This document shows, in pieces, positions 16,555 to 64,000 of a stretch of DNA of 64,000 bases. The notes under the pieces were generated by a model. That model had not been told where the DNA came from. It saw only the letters and a list, made by a program, of their open reading frames with translations, and did not search any database. This DNA is from a virus. The translations under genes and the position numbers were made by a program. Positions within the stretch are counted from its first letter, which is position 1. Every line of letters starts with the position of its first letter. Location of the stretch: the IMG/VR virus record IMGVR_UViG_3300017716_002595, positions 41,693 through 105,692 of that record. The stretch is one strand, 5' to 3'.

Positions 16555-16913
16555 ACTACCGTTCTTTGAAATAAAACTTATAAATTATGGAACAAATTTT
16601 AGCATTTGTTTTAGGTGTTAGTGGAGCTCTTCTTGTATGGGGAGTTGTGGTAGCGTTTAAGACAGCAAAGTTAGCAAAACAAAATGAACAAAGTATTCTA
16701 AATATAGAACAATGGGTTCATAGAAACGATGAATTAGTAAATCGTAGAATTGATCAAGAAATTGATCGAGTAGATCGTCTACATCAAGACAGTATTTCAT
16801 TTACTGACTCTAGAGTAGATAAATTAGAAGCAAAAATCTTATTAGTTGATAAGGATGGTTGTGAACCAACTAAAAAATTATTAAAAGGATAAATTAACCC
16901 AAAGAACGGTAGT
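16555..16913. repeat. 14-bp perfect inverted repeat bracketing ORF 16587-16892
   Basis: ACTACCGTTCTTTG (16555-16568) / CAAAGAACGGTAGT (16900-16913). Confidence 0.85.
16587..16892 (+). CDS. Membrane-anchored coiled-coil protein
   Basis: N-terminal TM helix followed by heptad-like region. Confidence 0.75.
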   Translation: MEQILAFVLGVSGALLVWGVVVAFKTAKLAKQNEQSILNIEQWVHRNDELVNRRIDQEIDRVDRLHQDSISFTDSRVDKLEAKILLVDKDGCEPTKKLLKG

Positions 16914-38546: not shown

Positions 38547-39030
38547 ACTTTAGGGCAATACAGTTTTTAAATTATTAACGCGATCTTAGGACGCACAAAA
38601 CGTAAATCAAAATGAGTACACAATTCAACGAATGGGATATCCTATTTCACAATTTTTTCTTTCCAACAAGCGGATTCGGATCAGCATCCACAACCAAACA
38701 ACCACATCCATTAAACATCTATTATGACGAAACAGGCCTTCACTTTGAGGTAGCATGTACTGGTCTAACTAAAGAAGATGTTAAAGTAGATATTGAAGAC
38801 GATATCTTAAAAATCAGTTATGACAAACCTGAAGAACTTTTACATCCTGGTACAATCCATAGAAGTTTATCTAAAAAATCCTTTAATTTAGGTTACAAAA
38901 TTTCAAGTAAATATGATTTAAGTAAATCTGATGGTAAACTAGAAAATGGTTTACTAACAATCTTTATTCCTATTACTGAAAAAGCTAAACCTAAAACTAT
39001 TAAAATCAAATAAAAATATTGCCCTAAAGT
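38547..39030. repeat. 14-bp perfect inverted repeat bracketing the Hsp20 gene
   Basis: ACTTTAGGGCAATA (38547-38560) / TATTGCCCTAAAGT (39017-39030). Confidence 0.85.
38612..39013 (+). CDS. Small heat-shock protein (Hsp20)
   Basis: HPLNIY, EVACTGLTKEDV, LENGLLTIFIP, KPKTIKIK. Confidence 0.92.
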   Translation: MSTQFNEWDILFHNFFFPTSGFGSASTTKQPHPLNIYYDETGLHFEVACTGLTKEDVKVDIEDDILKISYDKPEELLHPGTIHRSLSKKSFNLGYKISSKYDLSKSDGKLENGLLTIFIPITEKAKPKTIKIK

Positions 39031-57756: not shown

Positions 57757-58393
57757 ACCATTAAGTAAGGAAGATATTGTCCGTGCGATGAAATATACTA
57801 AATCAAATCGTGCTGCCGCTCGTTATTTAGGTGTATCATATCAACATTATAAACCTTGGGCTAAAAGATATAAAATTGATGATGGTGATATAGAAGCACT
57901 TAATCTATTTGATTTACATAAAAACCAATCTGGAAAAGGAATACCTAAATATCTTCCTAATAAGCGAAAAGATCCAAATGTTAGGAATATAATAGAAACA
58001 GGAACAGGATGGGAATCATTCACACCAGAAAAAATAAAATCTAGATTAGTTGCTGAAGCTTTACTATTAGATGAATGCCATAGTTGTGGGTTTCATGAAC
58101 GTAGGATAACAGATTATAAAACACCACTATTGTTGAATTTTAAAGACGGTAATAAATGTAATTACCTTTTAGAAAATTTAGAATTAGTATGTTACAACTG
58201 TTATTTCTTATATGTAGCAGACCCACTAACAGCAAATCAAGTTAGACATATTGAAGATAATACTGAAGTTAAAGAAGTAGCTCATGATTGGGATTTAAGT
58301 CCTGAACAAATAGAAAATATGAAATCTTTAGGATTATGGACAAAAGAAGAACCTAAAGAACCTGGTTCTGAATTTATAGCATACAAACATTAA
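57743..58393 (+). CDS. HTH + degenerate HNH-like zinc-binding protein
   Basis: SNRAAARYLGVSY; CHSCG...LLLNFKDGN..N..LENL..VCYNC. Confidence 0.7.
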   Translation: MPKAKPLSKEDIVRAMKYTKSNRAAARYLGVSYQHYKPWAKRYKIDDGDIEALNLFDLHKNQSGKGIPKYLPNKRKDPNVRNIIETGTGWESFTPEKIKSRLVAEALLLDECHSCGFHERRITDYKTPLLLNFKDGNKCNYLLENLELVCYNCYFLYVADPLTANQVRHIEDNTEVKEVAHDWDLSPEQIENMKSLGLWTKEEPKEPGSEFIAYKH

Positions 58394-58417
58394 TATTTAT
58401 AAACACAAATTAAGATT

Positions 58418-58630
58418 ATGAACGAAAACAAGTATTACATCGTTAAAGTTGAATTTCAATCTATTGACGATAAAGGAAAAACAAAAAGACAAAAATTAGA
58501 TTATTTAGTGGATGCTGTATCTGTAACAGAAGCTGAAGCAAAAATAACAGGATGGTTAGTGGAAAGAAACGAAAGAAATTTTGAAATCAAAGCAGCGATA
58601 ACATCTCCTATCGTATATGTAATAGAGTAA
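58418..58630 (+). CDS. DUF4494-like protein
   Basis: YLVDAVSVTEAEAKI. Confidence 0.75.
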   Translation: MNENKYYIVKVEFQSIDDKGKTKRQKLDYLVDAVSVTEAEAKITGWLVERNERNFEIKAAITSPIVYVIE

Positions 58631-58631
58631 A

Positions 58632-58781
58632 ATGGAAGAAAATTTATGTGATAACTGTAAAACCCATCTATCTTGTGGGTGTCAAAGACGAACAGCATCT
58701 AATGGACAATCATGTTGTGACGGATGTATAGCCGATTATGAAGCAAGATTAGTAGCTACTAAACCTATTTCTCCAAGATAA
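58632..58781 (+). CDS. Small Cys-rich protein (49 aa)
   Basis: MEENLCDNCKTHLSCGCQRRTASNGQSCCDGC..., 7 Cys. Confidence 0.65.
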   Translation: MEENLCDNCKTHLSCGCQRRTASNGQSCCDGCIADYEARLVATKPISPR

Positions 58782-58813
58782 TTTGGCTACCTAAAAGAAG
58801 GTTCATATATTTA
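58782..58813 (+). promoter_or_regulatory. Bacteroidota-type sigma70 promoter
   Basis: TTTGG-N19-TATATTTA. Confidence 0.6.
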
Positions 58814-58869
58814 CAAAAGAAGTTAAGGTTTTTAATTTCTGTATATATTTATAGACATAAAATAATAAA

Positions 58870-59016
58870 ATGACAACGATTCAAAACATGCATCAATTTA
58901 ATAGCGCAACGCTGAGACCAATACAAACGTGGTCGGATTCGTTATGTGGTGATGTCATTTTAGGCTTTAGTGCGTATAATAACGAACCGAAACAAGGAGA
59001 CCGAGATCTGGTATGA
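58870..59016 (+). CDS. Small ORF (48 aa) or sRNA upstream of the tRNA array
   Basis: MTTIQNMHQFNSATLRPIQTWSDSLCG...; between promoters and a terminator. Confidence 0.4.
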   Translation: MTTIQNMHQFNSATLRPIQTWSDSLCGDVILGFSAYNNEPKQGDRDLV

Positions 59017-59045
59017 TATAGTTAAACACATATATAACATAAATC

Positions 59046-59084
59046 AAGACTCGGATCAAAATAAAAGATTCGAGTCTTTTTTTT
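59046..59084 (+). terminator. Intrinsic terminator
   Basis: AAGACTCGGATC/GATTCGAGTCTT stem followed by a T run. Confidence 0.8.
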
Positions 59085-59092
59085 AAAATAAA

Positions 59093-59153
59093 TTTGATTA
59101 CCTAAGACAGTAATCGTAATTTTACAAAAGAGTTCATTGACATATTGGATAAA
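59093..59153 (+). promoter_or_regulatory. tRNA-array promoter with rrn-type boxA-like leader
   Basis: TTTGA-N19-TAATTTTA, then AGTTCATTGACATATTG. Confidence 0.6.
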
Positions 59154-59161
59154 GTTAAAAG

Positions 59162-59245
59162 GGAAGACATCCGGCTGGATCAGGAGCGACTCTTGAAAAG
59201 TCGTAGCAGGTAACACTGTTGTGGGTTCGAGTCCCACGTCTTCCT
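59162..59245 (+). tRNA. tRNA-Ser(TGA)
   Basis: CGACT-CT TGA AA-AGTCG, long variable arm. Confidence 0.9.
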
Positions 59246-59251
59246 CAATAT

Positions 59252-59323
59252 TGGCTTATAGTGTAACGGTTAGCACAAAACACTTTGACTGTTTTAGTCT
59301 AGGTTCGAATCCTAGTAAGCCAA
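59252..59323 (+). tRNA. tRNA-Gln(TTG)
   Basis: AAACA-CT TTG AC-TGTTT. Confidence 0.9.
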
Positions 59324-59332
59324 CAATAATTT

Positions 59333-59408
59333 CTGGTAGTAGAGGAGTTCGGTTTATCTCGCTCGCCTTGGACGCGAGAGCACGCAAGTTCGAATCTTGC
59401 CTACCAGA
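59333..59408 (+). tRNA. tRNA-Pro(TGG)
   Basis: CTCGC-CT TGG AC-GCGAG. Confidence 0.9.
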
Positions 59409-59414
59409 CAAATT

Positions 59415-59486
59415 GCCCCTATAACTTAACGGCTAAAGTACTATACTTTTAATATAGGAATCCAAGTTCGATTCTTGGTGGGGGTA
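59415..59486 (+). tRNA. tRNA-Lys(TTT)
   Basis: CTATA-CT TTT AA-TATAG. Confidence 0.9.
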
Positions 59487-59494
59487 CAAAAATT

Positions 59495-59565
59495 GCCTCG
59501 TTGGCGTAATGGAAGCGTATTTCTTTTACATGGAAATGGCAGTAGTTCGATTCTACTACGAGGTA
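59495..59565 (+). tRNA. tRNA-Val(TAC)
   Basis: TTTCT-TT TAC AT-GGAAA. Confidence 0.85.
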
Positions 59566-59570
59566 CAAAA

Positions 59571-59651
59571 GGGATGCTTCAGTCACTGGTGTGATAAGCG
59601 GTCTGTAAAATCGTTCTGTAAGAAGGTGTGGTTCGATTCCACAGTGTCCCA
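59571..59651 (+). tRNA. tRNA-Tyr(GTA)
   Basis: GCGGT-CT GTA AA-ATCGT. Confidence 0.85.
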
Positions 59652-59656
59652 CAATT

Positions 59657-59729
59657 GGACCTTTGGTATAGCTGGTGCGTACGCTAGTCTGAAGAACTAG
59701 AGGAGTAGGTTCGATTCCTACAGGGTCCA
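59657..59729 (+). tRNA. tRNA-Phe(GAA)
   Basis: CTAGT-CT GAA GA-ACTAG. Confidence 0.9.
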
Positions 59730-59734
59730 CAATC

Positions 59735-59806
59735 GGGTTTGTCGTATAAAGGCTATTACGGAGAGCTGTTAACTCTTTTATGAAGGTTCGACTCCTTCCA
59801 AGCCCG
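59735..59806 (+). tRNA. tRNA-Asn(GTT)
   Basis: GAGAG-CT GTT AA-CTCTT. Confidence 0.9.
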
Positions 59807-59813
59807 CAAAATT

Positions 59814-59885
59814 GCTCCTATAGTAGAATGGTTAGCACACATCTCTGATAAGGATGAAATGGAAGTTCAATTCTTCCTAGGAGTA
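59814..59885 (+). tRNA. tRNA-Ile(GAT)
   Basis: CATCT-CT GAT AA-GGATG. Confidence 0.88.
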
Positions 59886-59891
59886 CAAAAT

Positions 59892-59976
59892 GGAAAGTAA
59901 ATCAACATGGTGTTGAGTCCGCCTGCTAAGCGAGGCGTTCGGGTAACTGGATTCAGTTCGATTCTGATTCTTTCCT
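59892..59976 (+). tRNA. tRNA-Ser(GCT)
   Basis: CGC-CT GCT AA-GCG, long variable arm. Confidence 0.8.
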
Positions 59977-59981
59977 CAAAT

Positions 59982-60051
59982 ACCGACTTGATCAGGTGAT
60001 CGAAAATATCTCATAAGTATTTTCAGAGTGGATCGTTACCACTAGTCGGTA
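59982..60051 (+). tRNA. tRNA-Met(CAT), atypical T loop
   Basis: AATAT-CT CAT AA-GTATT; T loop ATCGTTA. Confidence 0.75.
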
Positions 60052-60054
60052 CAA

Positions 60055-60161
60055 AATTATACGGGTAGGTAGGAAGTTAAGAAACGTTACTCAAAAAACG
60101 ACTTAACGAGGTAAAGCGTTAGAATAGTAAAATTGAGTAAGCGTTATTAAAGTAGTATAAT
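60055..60161 (+). ncRNA. Putative rod-like structured RNA in tRNA spacer
   Basis: Nested pairings AATTATAC/GTATAATT, TTACTCAA/TTGAGTAA, TAACG/CGTTA. Confidence 0.45.
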
Positions 60162-60167
60162 TTATAT

Positions 60168-60240
60168 GGTGTTTCTAGCTTATTGGTAAAGCGCTTGACT
60201 GTGAATCAGGAGAACAGGGTTCGATACCCGGTAACACCCA
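60168..60240 (+). tRNA. tRNA-His(GTG)
   Basis: CTTGA-CT GTG AA-TCAGG; G-1:C73. Confidence 0.88.
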
Positions 60241-60244
60241 AAAT

Positions 60245-60324
60245 GCCCCTGTGGTGAAAATGGTAAACACACCAGGCTTAAAACTTGGCGCTCAGGCTTG
60301 CTGGTTCGACTCCAGTCAGGGGTA
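60245..60324 (+). tRNA. tRNA-Leu(TAA)
   Basis: CCAGG-CT TAA AA-CTTGG. Confidence 0.9.
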
Positions 60325-60338
60325 CAAAAATATATGTT

Positions 60339-60524
60339 ATGACTATTGAATACTTAAAAGAACACGGAAAGGATGTTTGTGGTGTATGTGAGCCAGCTAA
60401 TATTGGTGGAAAATACGTAAATCAAACTGTTGATGGTTTAAGACTTTGGAAATGTGAAGGTAGATATTATTGGGTTGAATCCGATAATGTTTCAATAGTT
60501 TATGATACTTTATTAGATGGTTAA
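60339..60524 (+). CDS. Hypothetical protein (61 aa) inside the tRNA array
   Basis: ATG 60339 downstream of tRNA-Leu. Confidence 0.6.
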   Translation: MTIEYLKEHGKDVCGVCEPANIGGKYVNQTVDGLRLWKCEGRYYWVESDNVSIVYDTLLDG

Positions 60525-60540
60525 AAGGTGTCCTGCATCT

Positions 60541-60612
60541 GGTCTTATAGTTTAATTGGAAAAACTTATCGCTACGAACGATAGAACAAAGGTTCGACTC
60601 CTTTTAAGACCT
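60541..60612 (+). tRNA. tRNA-Arg(ACG)
   Basis: TATCG-CT ACG AA-CGATA. Confidence 0.9.
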
Positions 60613-60617
60613 CAACC

Positions 60618-60689
60618 GCCCTATTAGTTAAACGGATATAACAAATCTCTTCTAAAGATTAATTCTAGGTTCGATTCCTGGATGGGGTA
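60618..60689 (+). tRNA. tRNA-Arg(TCT)
   Basis: AATCT-CT TCT AA-AGATT. Confidence 0.9.
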
Positions 60690-60696
60690 CAAAAAA

Positions 60697-60772
60697 ATCG
60701 CTGATGTCCTCATAAGTTCGACATTAAAGGTATGTAATGATATCAATACCCGTAGGTTAAGCGATATCCTAC
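60697..60772 (+). ncRNA. Putative pseudoknotted RNA in tRNA spacer
   Basis: ATCGCT/AGCGAT crossing GTAGG/CCTAC, enclosing two hairpins. Confidence 0.45.
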
Positions 60773-60776
60773 AAAT

Positions 60777-60845
60777 GCGTCACAGGCTAAGGTAGCCAAA
60801 TGGATTCCAACCCCATAGGACAGAGTTCGATTCTTTGGTGGCGCG
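60777..60845 (+). tRNA. tRNA-Trp(CCA)
   Basis: ATGGA-TT CCA AC-CCCAT. Confidence 0.85.
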
Positions 60846-60877
60846 CAAATATATTGTTTCATTAAAAAAAGTAAATC

Positions 60878-61384
60878 ATGAGTAAGTATCAAAAAACACT
60901 AGTAGTGGATTCAAGCTTTATCGCGAGATCAGTTATAAGCGCAGAAAGGGCATTTGTGATTTCTTACAAAGGTAATGCTGAAATAATAGCTGAACACCCA
61001 GAAACATTTGGGTTAGTAAATCCTAAATTAGAAATTTATAAACCTTCTATTATTAGAGTGTTTACATATGTTAAACAACATATTCATAAAGTGCCTCTAA
61101 CAAGAGAAAATATTTACAAAAGAGATAATTATGAATGTGTTTACTGCGGATGTTCAAATCAAAGAATATTGACATTGGATCACGTAGTTCCCCAATCAAA
61201 AGGAGGAAAAGATTCATGGGATAATTTAGTAACAGCTTGTAGACCTTGCAACCATGAAAAAGCAGATTTAACACTAGAAGAATATGGAAAAGACATCCCA
61301 GAACCTAAACGACCACATTATTTAATGTTACTAAGACAGGTTCAAGATATTCCAAAAGAATGGGAATCATTTTTATTCTTTTAG
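60878..61384 (+). CDS. HNH endonuclease (McrA-like)
   Basis: TRENIYKRD.YECVYCG, TLDHVVPQSKGG.DSWDNLVTAC.PCN.EK. Confidence 0.92.
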   Translation: MSKYQKTLVVDSSFIARSVISAERAFVISYKGNAEIIAEHPETFGLVNPKLEIYKPSIIRVFTYVKQHIHKVPLTRENIYKRDNYECVYCGCSNQRILTLDHVVPQSKGGKDSWDNLVTACRPCNHEKADLTLEEYGKDIPEPKRPHYLMLLRQVQDIPKEWESFLFF

Positions 61385-61415
61385 TTGGAAAACCAAAAAT
61401 AATTTCTTATATTTA
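61384..61415 (+). promoter_or_regulatory. Internal sigma70 promoter in the tRNA array
   Basis: GTTGG-N19-TATATTTA. Confidence 0.65.
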
Positions 61416-61430
61416 GGTATAAGAAAATAA

Positions 61431-61500
61431 GGGCAGGATGGTCTTGGAGGCCGGCTGGATTGCAAACTCAGCGGAGTAAGTTCGATTCTTACCTTGCCCT
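61431..61500 (+). tRNA. tRNA-Cys(GCA)
   Basis: TT GCA AA loop, U73. Confidence 0.82.
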
Positions 61501-61508
61501 CAATAATA

Positions 61509-61582
61509 GCCCGAGTGGTGGAATTGGCAGACACGGCGGCCTTAGAAGTCGTAAACTGAGAGTTCGAGTCTCTCCTTGGGTA
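61509..61582 (+). tRNA. tRNA-Leu(TAG) lacking the long variable arm
   Basis: GCGGC-CT TAG AA-GTCGT; variable region AAACT. Confidence 0.85.
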
Positions 61583-61586
61583 CAAA

Positions 61587-61653
61587 TTAGAGTTAGCTTA
61601 TAGTAAAGCAGCAGGGGCTAACCTGCAGAACGGATACGAAAACCGGCTCTAAT
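61587..61653 (+). ncRNA. Aberrant tRNA-like RNA with 6-nt loop GGCTAA
   Basis: Acceptor TTAGAGT/GCTCTAA, D stem GCTT/AAGC, GCAGG/CCTGC stem, T loop TACGAAA. Confidence 0.65.
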
Positions 61654-61658
61654 TATTT

Positions 61659-61732
61659 GCTCCCGACGCACAAATGGTGGTGCACCGGATTTGTAACCCG
61701 GAATAGAGCCAGTTCGATCCTGGCCGGGAGCT
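61659..61732 (+). tRNA. tRNA-Thr(TGT)
   Basis: CCGGA-TT TGT AA-CCCGG. Confidence 0.88.
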
Positions 61733-61736
61733 CAGC

Positions 61737-61883
61737 AGTCATTTGAATTAGCACTAGGACAATGACTATCAACGGAGGAAGCTAATCTCACGGTTGATCC
61801 TGTAGGTTGCGACTGGTACGCATAAAGAAACTCCTACCAGGTAAAGTAGGTGTATGGCACTTTTCAATAGCCTAAGCTTTACC
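61737..61883 (+). ncRNA. Putative multi-hairpin RNA with kissing loop
   Basis: AGTCATT/AATGACT, ATCAAC/GTTGAT, loop-loop ATTAGC/GCTAAT, GTAGG/CCTAC, GGTAAAG/CTTTACC. Confidence 0.55.
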
Positions 61884-61888
61884 AAACT

Positions 61889-61960
61889 GCGACTATCGTA
61901 TAATGGTCATTACTTTAGACTTCCAATCTAAAGATGAGAGTTCGATTCTCTCTAGTCGCT
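61889..61960 (+). tRNA. tRNA-Gly(TCC)
   Basis: TTAGA-CT TCC AA-TCTAA. Confidence 0.9.
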
Positions 61961-62011
61961 CAAGGGTGTGTGGGAACCCAAGAATATGTGATGAACATAT
62001 ACCCACAATCT

Positions 62012-62083
62012 GCTGCGTTAGTGAAGGGGTTAACACGTATCACTTTCTATGATAAGGCACGGGTTCGAATCCCGTACGCAGTA
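62012..62083 (+). tRNA. tRNA-Glu(TTC)
   Basis: TATCA-CT TTC TA-TGATA. Confidence 0.88.
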
Positions 62084-62089
62084 CAATAA

Positions 62090-62162
62090 GGGGTCATAGC
62101 TCAACTGGCTGAGCGCTATCCTTGCACGGTAGAGGATGTGGGTTCGAATCCCATTGGTTCCA
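62090..62162 (+). tRNA. tRNA-Ala(TGC)
   Basis: CTATC-CT TGC AC-GGTAG; G3:U70. Confidence 0.9.
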
Positions 62163-62216
62163 CAATAGCTTAATCGACTTTGACAGATTTGACAACTTGG
62201 AATAGACAAGTAATTT

Positions 62217-62290
62217 GGTCTGTCAGTCCAGTTGGAGTGGACGCCTGCCTGTCACGTAGGAGATCACGGGTTCGAGTCCCGTACGGACCG
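62217..62290 (+). tRNA. tRNA-Asp(GTC)
   Basis: CCTGC-CT GTC AC-GTAGG. Confidence 0.9.
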
Positions 62291-62299
62291 CTTATAAAC

Positions 62300-62369
62300 T
62301 GCGTTAAGGTGTAAAGGTTGCATCCTGGTCTCATAAGCCAGGGGGGTGGTTCGAGTCCACGCTACGCTA
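62300..62369 (+). tRNA. tRNA-Met(CAT), initiator-like, imperfect acceptor stem
   Basis: CTGGT-CT CAT AA-GCCAG; 1:72 mismatch. Confidence 0.7.
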
Positions 62370-62374
62370 CAAAG

Positions 62375-62473
62375 GACTAAATGGCGGTGTCAGGCACCCA
62401 CTGCAGAGGGTACAAAGAAGAACCTGCTTTATATGCCTGCGAGATATCATCTCGCCGGATAACACATTTAGTC
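62375..62473 (+). ncRNA. Putative multi-stem RNA in tRNA spacer
   Basis: GACTAAATG/CATTTAGTC closing CAGGCA/TGCCTG, GCAG/CTGC and CGAGAT/ATCTCG. Confidence 0.55.
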
Positions 62474-62478
62474 TATTT

Positions 62479-62552
62479 GTCCTTTTAGCTTAGTTGGTTA
62501 GAGCAGCTCGCTCATAACGAGAAGGTCACAGGTTCGAGTCCTGTATAGGACA
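62479..62552 (+). tRNA. tRNA(CAT), probably Ile2 (lysidine type)
   Basis: TAGCTTAGTTGGTTAGAGCAG...CT CAT AA, resembles bacterial ileX. Confidence 0.8.
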
Positions 62553-62576
62553 CAAAATTTTATCCAATATTTTAGT

Positions 62577-62615
62577 AAAAAGACTTGTATACGCAGGTCT
62601 TTTTTTATATCTTTA
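62577..62615 (+). terminator. Terminator of the tRNA array, overlapping the next promoter
   Basis: AAAAAGACTTG/CAGGTCTTTTT stem followed by a T run; CTTGT-N19-TATCTTTA. Confidence 0.75.
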
Positions 62616-62633
62616 TACATTAAATAAAAAGTT

Positions 62634-63284
62634 ATGAAACTAGTATTAGAAAAAGGACAACAATTGTTCTTTACATCAGACACACATTACTCACACTCAA
62701 ACATTTGTAGTGCTACTACAAACTGGTCAGTGAATGATGGATATGCTCGTAAATTTGATTCATTAGAAGATATGAACCAAAGACTAGTTGATAACATTAA
62801 CAACATGGTCGGTGAAGATGATATCTTAATACATTTAGGTGACTGGTCATTTGGAGGGTTTGATAAGATTGAAGAATTCAGAAGTCAAATCAACTGTAAA
62901 AACATTCACTTGACATTTGGAAACCATGATCACCACATTGAAAGAAACAAGGAAGGAGTACAGAGACTATTTTCTTCAGTACAACATTACTTAGAACTAG
63001 AAGTTGTAAGACCACTTACTAAGTCAATGAATGAAAAGTTTAAATTCGTTTGTATGCACTATCCAATTGCGTCATGGCATGATATGAACCAAGGAGTAAT
63101 TCACTTACATGGTCACGTTCATTTACCTTCACACTTACGAATAGCAGAGGGTAAAGCAATGGATGTAGGAGTAGATGGAAATGGTTTAGATCCAATTTCA
63201 TTAGACGAGATACTTTCAATTATGAAAGATAGAGAAGTTAAAAAATTAGCCTTACCAAAGGATCACCACGAAAAAAGAATATAA
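62634..63284 (+). CDS. Calcineurin-like metallophosphoesterase
   Basis: FTSDTH, HLGD, GNHD, MHYP, HLHGHVH, DVGVD. Confidence 0.9.
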   Translation: MKLVLEKGQQLFFTSDTHYSHSNICSATTNWSVNDGYARKFDSLEDMNQRLVDNINNMVGEDDILIHLGDWSFGGFDKIEEFRSQINCKNIHLTFGNHDHHIERNKEGVQRLFSSVQHYLELEVVRPLTKSMNEKFKFVCMHYPIASWHDMNQGVIHLHGHVHLPSHLRIAEGKAMDVGVDGNGLDPISLDEILSIMKDREVKKLALPKDHHEKRI

Positions 63285-63285
63285 T

Positions 63286-63504
63286 ATGAACATAATATTT
63301 TCATACACTCCATCCAAGGTAAAAGAACCTAAATGGTATAAATTTTATAATACTGAAGAGTTTAACATAACTACTCAGAGAGATTATACAGTAAGAGCAG
63401 CAGCAAGTCTGGATTTAATACCAGAACCTAAATGTTTTAGTCTAGAATTTTTAAGTAAACATGGAGATCATAGTAATGTAATGTTAAAAAAGAAATTAAA
63501 ATGA
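63286..63504 (+). CDS. Hypothetical protein
   Basis: 72-aa ORF, coupled to neighbours. Confidence 0.6.
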   Translation: MNIIFSYTPSKVKEPKWYKFYNTEEFNITTQRDYTVRAAASLDLIPEPKCFSLEFLSKHGDHSNVMLKKKLK

Positions 63505-63644
63505 AAGAGTTATTATGTTATTTAGGGTTTCATAAATGGACTAAATGGGAATTTACATATAATGGATATAAAATTTTGAAAATACCTCATCAAAGAAGAG
63601 AATGTAAAATATGTGGTAAAATCAAAATAAAGCAAATAATATGA
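63501..63644 (+). CDS. Small zinc-finger-like phage protein (DUF1660-like, 47 aa)
   Basis: LLCYLGFHKW...RRECKICGK. Confidence 0.65.
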   Translation: MKELLCYLGFHKWTKWEFTYNGYKILKIPHQRRECKICGKIKIKQII

Positions 63645-64000
63645 AAGAGTTATTTTTATTAAGAGGATTACCTGGAGCAGGTAAAACAACATTAGCAAAT
63701 TCAATAGGAGGATCATGGTTTGAAGCAGATCATTTCTTTCTTAACGAGAAAGGTGAATATGAATTTAATCCTTCAAATTTAAAAGCAGCCCATAAATGGT
63801 GTAGACTAGTAGTTGAAGAATCAATGTCAAAATGGAATGGAATAAACCCAGATGAAAAGATTATAGTATCAAATACATTTACTCAGGAATGGGAAATGCA
63901 ACCATACTATGATCTAGCAGAAAAATACGGATACAGAGTTTATTCTTTGATTGTAGAAAATAGACATGGAGGAGTAAACGAGCATGGAGTACCAGAAGAA
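63641..64000 (+). CDS. P-loop kinase (AAA_33 / polynucleotide-kinase-like), 3'-truncated
   Basis: LRGLPGAGKTT, EADHFF, AHKWC, VSNTFT.EWE, N.HGVP. Confidence 0.85.
   Translation, partial: MKELFLLRGLPGAGKTTLANSIGGSWFEADHFFLNEKGEYEFNPSNLKAAHKWCRLVVEESMSKWNGINPDEKIIVSNTFTQEWEMQPYYDLAEKYGYRVYSLIVENRHGGVNEHGVPEE

Follow-up and report, generated by a model that had tools for sequence, protein, structure and literature searches.

Multi-kilobase transfer RNA (tRNA) arrays are common in large phages and, to our knowledge, it has not been worked out how their long, untranslated and structured transcripts escape Rho and get processed. The tRNA array analysed here raises this question. It belongs to a large Flavobacterium-type phage and lies on a 105,692-base-pair (bp) viral contig rated 64% complete (IMG/VR record IMGVR_UViG_3300017716_002595), whose sequence is present in freshwater and lake metagenomes, within a window of 64,000 nucleotides (nt; contig positions 41693-105692) to which the coordinates below refer unless another locus is named. 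The array occupies 59162-62553 on the plus strand. The first-pass annotation of this DNA had proposed that it is closed by a long-range stem and that, preceded by a boxA-like leader, it mimics a ribosomal RNA (rRNA) operon of the host. That proposal is supported by our analysis and is refined to the layout of a pseudo-23S precursor, on the grounds of a 17-mer identical to a host element and of covarying arms. We consider it probable that the array is a single unit of ~3.5 kilobases (kb) framed as host pre-23S rRNA, which would be made and trimmed by the host rRNA machinery.

A closing helix at the ends of the array

Both ends of the array carry complementary sequences. As annotated at first pass, ATATTGGATAAA (59142-59153) and TTTATCCAATAT (62559-62570) are exact reverse complements, and the pairing continues over three further pairs including one G-U, i.e. 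59154-59156 with 62556-62558, the wobble being G59154-U62558, which brings the helix to 15 bp. Beyond a single C-U mismatch the arms pair again (59136-59140 with 62572-62576), for a total of 20 bp (-18.4 kcal/mol); in folding, this 20-bp duplex coexists with the terminator hairpin at 62577-62604. The 5' arm of the helix was delimited at 59136-59156 (core 59142-59156, extension 59136-59140) and the 3' arm at 62556-62576 (core 62556-62570, extension 62572-62576), both on the plus strand, the leader ATTGACATATTGGATAAAGTT pairing with the trailer AATTTTATCCAATATTTTAGT. As the tRNAs span 59162-62553, a gap of 5 nt separates the 5' arm from the first tRNA, and one of 2 nt the last tRNA from the 3' arm. 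Neither 12-nt arm has a second exact copy in the window or elsewhere on the viral contig. Composition-preserving shuffling produced a Watson-Crick run of at least 12 between the 35-nt leader and the 23-nt trailer 11 times in 20,000 trials; among 20,000 pairs of windows drawn at random, one had such a run.

Conservation of the arms in related phages, a check suggested together with the stem, was assessed using the neighbouring phosphoesterase gene as syntenic anchor, which gave 45 related viral loci. Both arms are kept among these loci. AGAGTTCATTGACATATTGGATAAA precedes the first tRNA-Ser wherever the array start is on the locus, the promoter region upstream being divergent, and AAATTTTATCCAATA(T) stands directly after the last tRNA-Met in most relatives, whether a terminator, a coding sequence or another structured RNA comes next. 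For three loci (L015, L022 and L031), the contig yielded no leader. For a wider view, IMG/VR was scanned with GTTCATTGACATNTTGG, and at least 119 viral stretches were found to contain the boxA-like 17-mer GTTCATTGACATATTGG, which overlaps the 5' arm and is described in the next section. A same-strand tRNA lies at most 400 nt downstream of the 17-mer in 87 of the 119 viral stretches listed, and the identity of this first tRNA varies widely among the arrays. The 17-mer is absent from two cultured phages, Flavobacterium phage immuto and Cellulophaga phage phi17:2; at the syntenic site of immuto, four tRNAs are annotated (three by ARAGORN) with neither leader nor trailer element.

The arms also covary, as had been anticipated if the stem was real. 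The bases after TTGG vary between arrays and the trailer changes in step, the complement of the variable leader bases being found downstream, usually right behind the last tRNA. Nine arm types were distinguished, i.e. (leader/trailer) GGATAAAGTT/AATTTTATCC, GGTTATAAA/TTTATAACC, GGTTTAGA/TCTAAACC, GGTTA/TAACC, GGTATTTTAAT/ATTAAAATACC, GGCCATA/TATGGCC, GGATAG/CTATCC, GGTAAA/TTTACC and GGATAATTTTGTAAT/ATTACAGAATTAACC. At the level of individual loci, the leader ATATTGGTTATAAA goes with the trailer TTTATAACCAATAT in L084 and L124, ACATATTGGTTTAGA with TCTAAACCAATATGT in L101, ACATATTGGTTA with TAACCAATATGT in L079, TTGGTATTTTAAT with ATTAAAATACCAA in L141, TGACATATTGGCCATA with TATGGCCAcAATATGTCA in L109 (one bulge), ACATATTGGATAA with TTATCCAATATGT in L077, TTTTGGTAAA with TTTACCAAAA in L164, TTTTGGATAG with CTATCCAAAA in L078 and TCTTGGATAATTTTGTAAT with ATTACAGAATTAACCAAGA in L063. 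The N of ATNTTGG likewise occurs in three Watson-Crick types, namely A with CCAATAT, T with CCAAAA and C with CCAAGA (A-U, U-A and C-G pairs). In permutation tests, each leader was compared with its own trailer against the trailers of arrays with other arm types. The own trailer fitted better both with an anchored extension (p = 7.5e-4, 26 classes) and with a local alignment reaching 420 nt past the last tRNA (p = 1.8e-4, 25 classes), and the same local-alignment test applied to host 23S helices gave p <= 2e-5.

The kind of deviation tolerated by the helix bears on the molecule in which it forms. In the close family, an in-register table yielded 19 valid distinct arm pairs (21 rows, two false anchors being left out). 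Deviations in the core of these 19 pairs comprise six G-U or U-G pairs (two in L132, the others in L051, in L289 and L018, in L058 and L032, and in L060 and L027), no A-C pair, and mismatches at one position, the fifth base of ATATTGG, where U-U and U-C occur once each. Wobble pairs of the G-U kind without A-C point to a helix in RNA of tRNA sense, and are a misfit for DNA repeats or antisense RNA; with about five events, this pattern is supportive rather than decisive. Two other measures were discarded: a tally of G-U versus A-C in the ungapped flanks of all helices was uninformative, these flanks being mostly unpaired, and a G-U-aware local alignment over whole loci returned the same trailers but with a reversed-leader control nearly as high in this AT-rich DNA.

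RNA from relatives was consulted through Logan contigs of four metatranscriptomes holding them. Contigs of 140-280 nt link the leader with tRNA-Ser, tRNA-Gln and tRNA-Pro, and others join neighbouring tRNAs; those spanning the leader cover 59136-59417 and 59128-59267 (two studies). Depth over 59000-59123 was zero in three runs and 0.39 in the fourth. These observations fit a transcript start near 59128-59136 and co-transcription of the array, contigs of this kind being able neither to show ends or strand nor to exclude DNA. The uncovered stretches 60364-60487 (in a small open reading frame, ORF) and 60984-61107 and the many joints between tRNAs correspond to other array content in the relatives, and are uninformative on this phage.

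Several arrays depart from the layout of the window. In 17 viral loci (L054, L096, L143, L056, L164 and others), a tRNA ends 5-58 nt upstream of the 17-mer, these tRNAs being of Phe, Ala, His, Pro, Thr, Asn and Cys identity; the element therefore also occurs inside arrays, apparently splitting them into sub-arrays. A matching trailer was found in mid-array in L139, L140 and L141. Behind the trailer of L019 (4330-4500) stands, in place of a terminator, a conserved element that seems to be structured (..GAGGTCAATTCCTTCGTCTCCAATGTAGG.. hairpin ..TTGGAGAGTAGTCCC) and that is also present in L005, L015, L017, L022, L031, L069, L080, L120, L130, L150 and L154 and has no match in Rfam. Its first bases, GTCAAT, prolong the leader-trailer helix onto the boxA bases ATTGAC. 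Finally, in a complete 161,982-bp relative with terminal repeats (G003; L289, ~1500-1525), the leader motif is GATCTTTGACATATTGGATAA, the first half of which is nearer to the classical boxA consensus (..TCTTTGA..), with an unchanged helix strand and a U-G wobble in the trailer.

The boxA-like element and the host pre-23S frame

A boxA-resembling sequence had been read at the 5' arm, and AGTTCATTGACATATTG was indeed confirmed at 59131-59147, overlapping this arm; the boxA-like bases of the array leader are GTTCATTGACAT. Comparison with host rRNA (rrn) operons showed that the 17-mer GTTCATTGACATATTGG (59132-59148, plus strand) is identical to an rrn element of Flavobacteriaceae and other Bacteroidota. 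The claimed likeness to the boxA of flavobacterial rrn operons had to be redrawn in one respect: the exact 17-mer is found in the 16S-23S spacer, before the 23S gene, whereas the 16S leader holds only the related GTTCATTGA.

This location was established by a census of hosts including one genome per prokaryote species. The exact 17-mer was recovered in at least 120 genome stretches, mostly from Flavobacteriaceae and other Bacteroidota, many of them short, high-coverage rrn contigs. On six host loci submitted to Rfam, the motif lies between tRNA-Ala and 23S in 6/6. The sites listed numbered 121, of which 16 were on loci too short to decide; among these listed matches, 86 of the 105 decidable sites have the 17-mer upstream of 23S, at a distance of 41-179 nt (median 132), and the other 19 are mostly variants with N = C, T or G and from other phyla. 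In the 16S leaders of these operons, the bases behind GTTCATTGA are different, so that the host element is present once in the 16S leader and once in the spacer, an arrangement like that of E. coli boxA. The element matches the boxA consensus GYTCTTTAANA, which is gamma-proteobacterial, at 9/11 positions (PMC5725501).

The helix has its counterpart in the same operons. In hosts, TTGACATATTGG and the variable bases after it pair with the 23S-5S spacer over 25-30 bp, G-U included, and the fifth base of ATATTGG, which is the irregular spot in the phage too, shows a bulge, wobble or mismatch. In Flavobacterium, ATTGACATATTGGGATAAGAAAA pairs with CTTTATCCCAGTATGTTAA across 23S. With arms like those of Flavobacterium pre-23S and an identical 17-mer, the phage array sits in the host 23S frame. 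Complementary flanks around an enclosed RNA are present at the array, and Rfam shows no rRNA within the helix, which makes it a variant of the rRNA-type leader-trailer helix and not a member. Over 58800-63000, only tRNAs reached a meaningful score in Rfam; a match to the DUF2693 RNA at 59132-59214 was dismissed (22 bits against a threshold of 81). No hairpin was found between the motif and the first tRNA, where there are only 13 nt. RNase III and NusB families were not found in the 64%-complete phage contig, the control genome of Bacteroides thetaiotaomicron being matched for both.

Related elements were noticed elsewhere. The exact 18-mer AGTTCATTGACATATTGG is present in the cultured Cellulophaga phage phi46:3 (L291, 3001-3018; NC_021792.1, 21081-21098) and in phi13:2. 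It stands there between divergently oriented genes, heading an operon of small early genes, and neither tRNAs nor a matching trailer occur within 3 kb of it. A scan of phage records detected the 17-mer in these two phages only, and no cultured phage with the frame of the tRNA array came to light. This 18-mer looks like a lambda-like use of host boxA, and the two phages offer a cultured system for testing the boxA part of our proposal. Within the window, GTTCTTTGAAAT (16561-16572), before a gene start, resembles the classical boxA consensus; in phage immuto, it stands directly after tRNA-Cys with the same flanks (L003, 5986-5997; ..ACTACC GTTCTTTGAAAT AAA..).

Predicted transcription unit, proposed mechanism and alternatives

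Upstream of the array, a terminator-like hairpin with a T-run, retrieved from the inverted-repeat listing (59046-59084, plus strand; AAGACTCG at 59046-59053 pairing with CGAGTCTT at 59071-59078), would end the preceding unit and isolate the array as its own transcription unit; it was not called in the terminator pattern scan because its loop exceeds the limit of the scan. The Bacteroidota promoter consensus consists of TTTG at -33 and TAnnTTTG at -7, and a promoter of this type is predicted at 59093-59124 on the plus strand (TTTG at 59093-59096, a 20-nt spacer and TAATTTTA at 59117-59124), from which the array transcript would be expected to start at ~59128-59136. Relatives show an analogous TTG...TAnnTTTA pair upstream of the motif despite their divergent sequence. 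At the other end, an intrinsic terminator (62577-62610, plus strand), made of a 12-pair hairpin (62577-62604) and a T-run, begins 6 nt past the 3' arm; this hairpin is the sole plus-strand terminator-like call in 58000-64000.

Between these signals, ARAGORN detected 22 tRNAs, all on the plus strand, and Rfam and folding added two extra cloverleaves, with anticodons CCA (60777-60848) and CAU (62298-62372), as well as a Ser(GCU)-like element (59889-59981), all three also on the plus strand, for ~25 tRNA genes in total. Two genes are read on the same strand inside the array: a small ORF of 61 amino acids without family match (60339-60524) and an HNH endonuclease gene (60878-61384; Pfam HNH_5 7.7e-14, HNH 2.1e-13). 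Five intra-array spacers are neither tRNA, according to ARAGORN and Rfam, nor ORF (60053-60167, 60691-60776, 61584-61658, 61734-61888 and 62373-62478). The stretches 60052-60163, 61733-61885 and 62373-62477 are skipped by the metatranscriptome contigs of relatives, which points to variable insertions. Outside the RNA unit follows the calcineurin-like phosphoesterase gene (62634-63284, plus strand; Pfam Metallophos 1.3e-08), which has 83% nucleotide identity to that of Flavobacterium phage immuto. Elsewhere in the window, an exact inverted repeat of 14 nt, ACTTTAGGGCAATA with its complement (38547-38560 and 39017-39030; 0.07 matches expected by chance), encloses an Hsp20-type gene, and the phage therefore seems to close at least one messenger RNA (mRNA) as well with a long-range stem.

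In the mechanism that we propose, the stretch from the predicted promoter (~59093-59124) to the terminator (62577-62610) would be transcribed as a single unit. The boxA copy at its very 5' end would load the host Nus complex (NusB-S10, NusG, NusA and SuhB) onto RNA polymerase, and the polymerase so modified would make the long, untranslated and structured transcript fast while escaping Rho. The emerging trailer would then pair with the leader and close the precursor into a loop, the double-stranded stalk bringing the 5' end of the first tRNA near the 3' end of the last. RNase III may cut this stalk, or the stalk may at least shield both ends; RNase P and 3' processing enzymes would release the tRNAs, and the intrinsic terminator 6 nt beyond the 3' arm would end the unit. 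Nus loading, Rho resistance and RNase III cleavage at the array are what we infer by analogy with rRNA synthesis. In E. coli, both boxA, through Nus factors and SuhB, and the leader-trailer helices matter for rRNA biogenesis, the helices being essential for subunit biogenesis (PMC10250234).

Several points weigh against this mechanism or against parts of it. Compared with the stalks around host 23S (25-30 bp), the helix of the window is short, with 15 perfect bp or 20 bp including a mismatch; it is rich in AU and a borderline case for RNase III. The frame is also irregular among arrays: L114 has no trailer adjoining its last tRNA, about half of the arm classes have none within 420 nt, and in some arrays the motif or the trailer sits within the array. 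An energy-based test of own versus other trailers (30-nt leaders, best duplex against 8 kb downstream) was not significant (p = 0.13), because GC-rich tRNA stems dominate and the leader includes acceptor bases of the first tRNA. The RNA evidence consists of metatranscriptome contigs of relatives, in which DNA carry-over is possible and from which strand and ends cannot be read. Lastly, the boxA label is given by position (a 16S leader copy and a spacer copy) and by a 9/11 match to a gamma-proteobacterial consensus, and the element is accordingly best called a putative boxA.

The alternative that survives best accepts the helix as real in RNA and assigns it another task, either that of an end-clamp against exonucleases or that of a reset, in which the trailer would pair with the 3' half of boxA (ATTGACAT), strip Nus and let the terminator act. 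It draws on the inclusion of boxA bases in the helix, namely ATTGA(C) at 59136-59140 of the window, with GTCAAT behind a bulge of 3 nt as the partner in relatives and TGTCA or TGTTAA in hosts, on the terminator placed directly behind the 3' arm and on a helix that is short for RNase III. However, many relatives have a coding sequence or another RNA, not a terminator, behind the trailer, so that a terminator-reset role cannot be general. In addition, rRNA leader-trailer stalks are classical RNase III substrates. The generality of leader-trailer helices in bacterial rRNA operons (PMC10250234) speaks in the same direction, and we regard this alternative as unlikely.

A much slimmer chance is given to the view that the flanks are functionless remains of an rrn operon fragment taken from a host, running from the spacer boxA to the 23S trailer, in which tRNAs took the place of the 23S gene, and that they persist by descent. 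The closeness of the arms to Flavobacterium pre-23S arms makes capture plausible as an origin. Yet the arms are kept across many diverged arrays while promoter and spacer sequence turns over, and they change together with deviations biased towards G-U, which is the signature of selection on pairing and not of decay; besides, upstream of the motif stand tRNAs of varied identity and not the host spacer tRNA-Ala. Least probable of all, and very improbable in our opinion, is that the arms act as DNA, as inverted repeats by which a recombinase or nuclease would recognise the ends of a tRNA cassette able to move or to invert: a 3.4-kb segment between 12-15-bp inverted repeats with an HNH endonuclease gene within it has the geometry of an invertible segment, but the array is on the phosphoesterase strand in every relative with upstream tRNAs among the 45 anchored loci, a constancy that argues against inversion, no recombinase gene was seen next to the arms and the sole Pfam-matched internal ORF is the HNH endonuclease, the arms vary yet stay complementary and tolerate G-U but not A-C, and the same arms flank chromosomal 23S rRNA genes in hosts.

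A single unit framed and handled as host pre-23S rRNA is thus the reading that we retain for this array. It may be carried further, in terms that we consider doubtful. Bacteroidota phages would systematically disguise long non-coding blocks as pre-23S and plug them into the rRNA factory, with arms tracking the 23S frame of the host, and the trailer would strip Nus, resulting in a self-limiting antitermination that insulates the neighbouring genes. This last part is a speculation arising from the helix covering the 3' half of the boxA-like element, whereby pairing of the trailer might release Nus factors.

Significance and comparison with known systems

A host-type boxA combined with a leader-trailer helix provides a testable answer to the question of how tRNA arrays escape Rho and are processed. 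If it is true, the phage would exploit the machinery of rRNA synthesis and maturation, beyond the translation apparatus alone. The frame may also be of practical use: for annotation, it would mark the true ends of the array transcript; as it appears specific to host lineages (with Flavobacterium-like arms in the present case), it may help to assign hosts to uncultured phages; and it might serve, as a small cassette of natural origin, to express long non-coding arrays in Bacteroidota. Full-text searches of the literature returned no description of boxA or of a closing helix at phage tRNA arrays. What would be new is that two features of rRNA operons, antitermination and leader-trailer framing, serve a tRNA array of a phage.

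Host-type boxA elements are known in front of other long transcripts. According to Stringer et al. 2020, a host-type boxA placed before long non-coding CRISPR arrays reportedly keeps Rho from ending transcription early. Those arrays are chromosomal and have no closing leader-trailer helix, whereas the present one is a phage tRNA array with such a helix. The lambda nut site (boxA and boxB, with the N protein) is another case of a phage using a host-type boxA to obtain a termination-resistant polymerase, as the present phage would do. In lambda, this depends on the phage's own N protein and on a boxB hairpin, and the targets are mRNA operons; in the phage leader studied here, no boxB hairpin was seen, and no search for an N-like protein was made.

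With the rrn operons of E. coli (boxB-boxA-boxC leader, spacer boxA, Nus factors and SuhB), the array shares a boxA-like 5' element, here on a predicted long untranslated transcript (PMC10250234; PMC5725501) and, like the 16S and 23S rRNAs of this species, a leader-trailer helix (PMC10250234). It differs from them by a leader without evident boxB hairpin or separate boxC, by a boxA-like element that overlaps the helix strand and by 2/11 consensus positions that deviate. The rrn operons of Bacteroidota, and of Flavobacteriaceae in particular, are closer. Here too there are differences: the phage helix encloses ~25 tRNAs, two ORFs and spacer RNAs and not 23S, it is shorter (15-20 vs 25-30 bp), and the array belongs to a phage genome and has its own predicted promoter and terminator in place of an intra-operon position. 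The two systems nevertheless have in common the same 17-mer, GTTCATTGACATATTGG, and the same 5' strand (TTGACATATTGG and a variable run), which pairs just behind the enclosed RNA; the phage arms are near-identical to those of Flavobacterium, and even the irregular fifth base of ATATTGG is shared.

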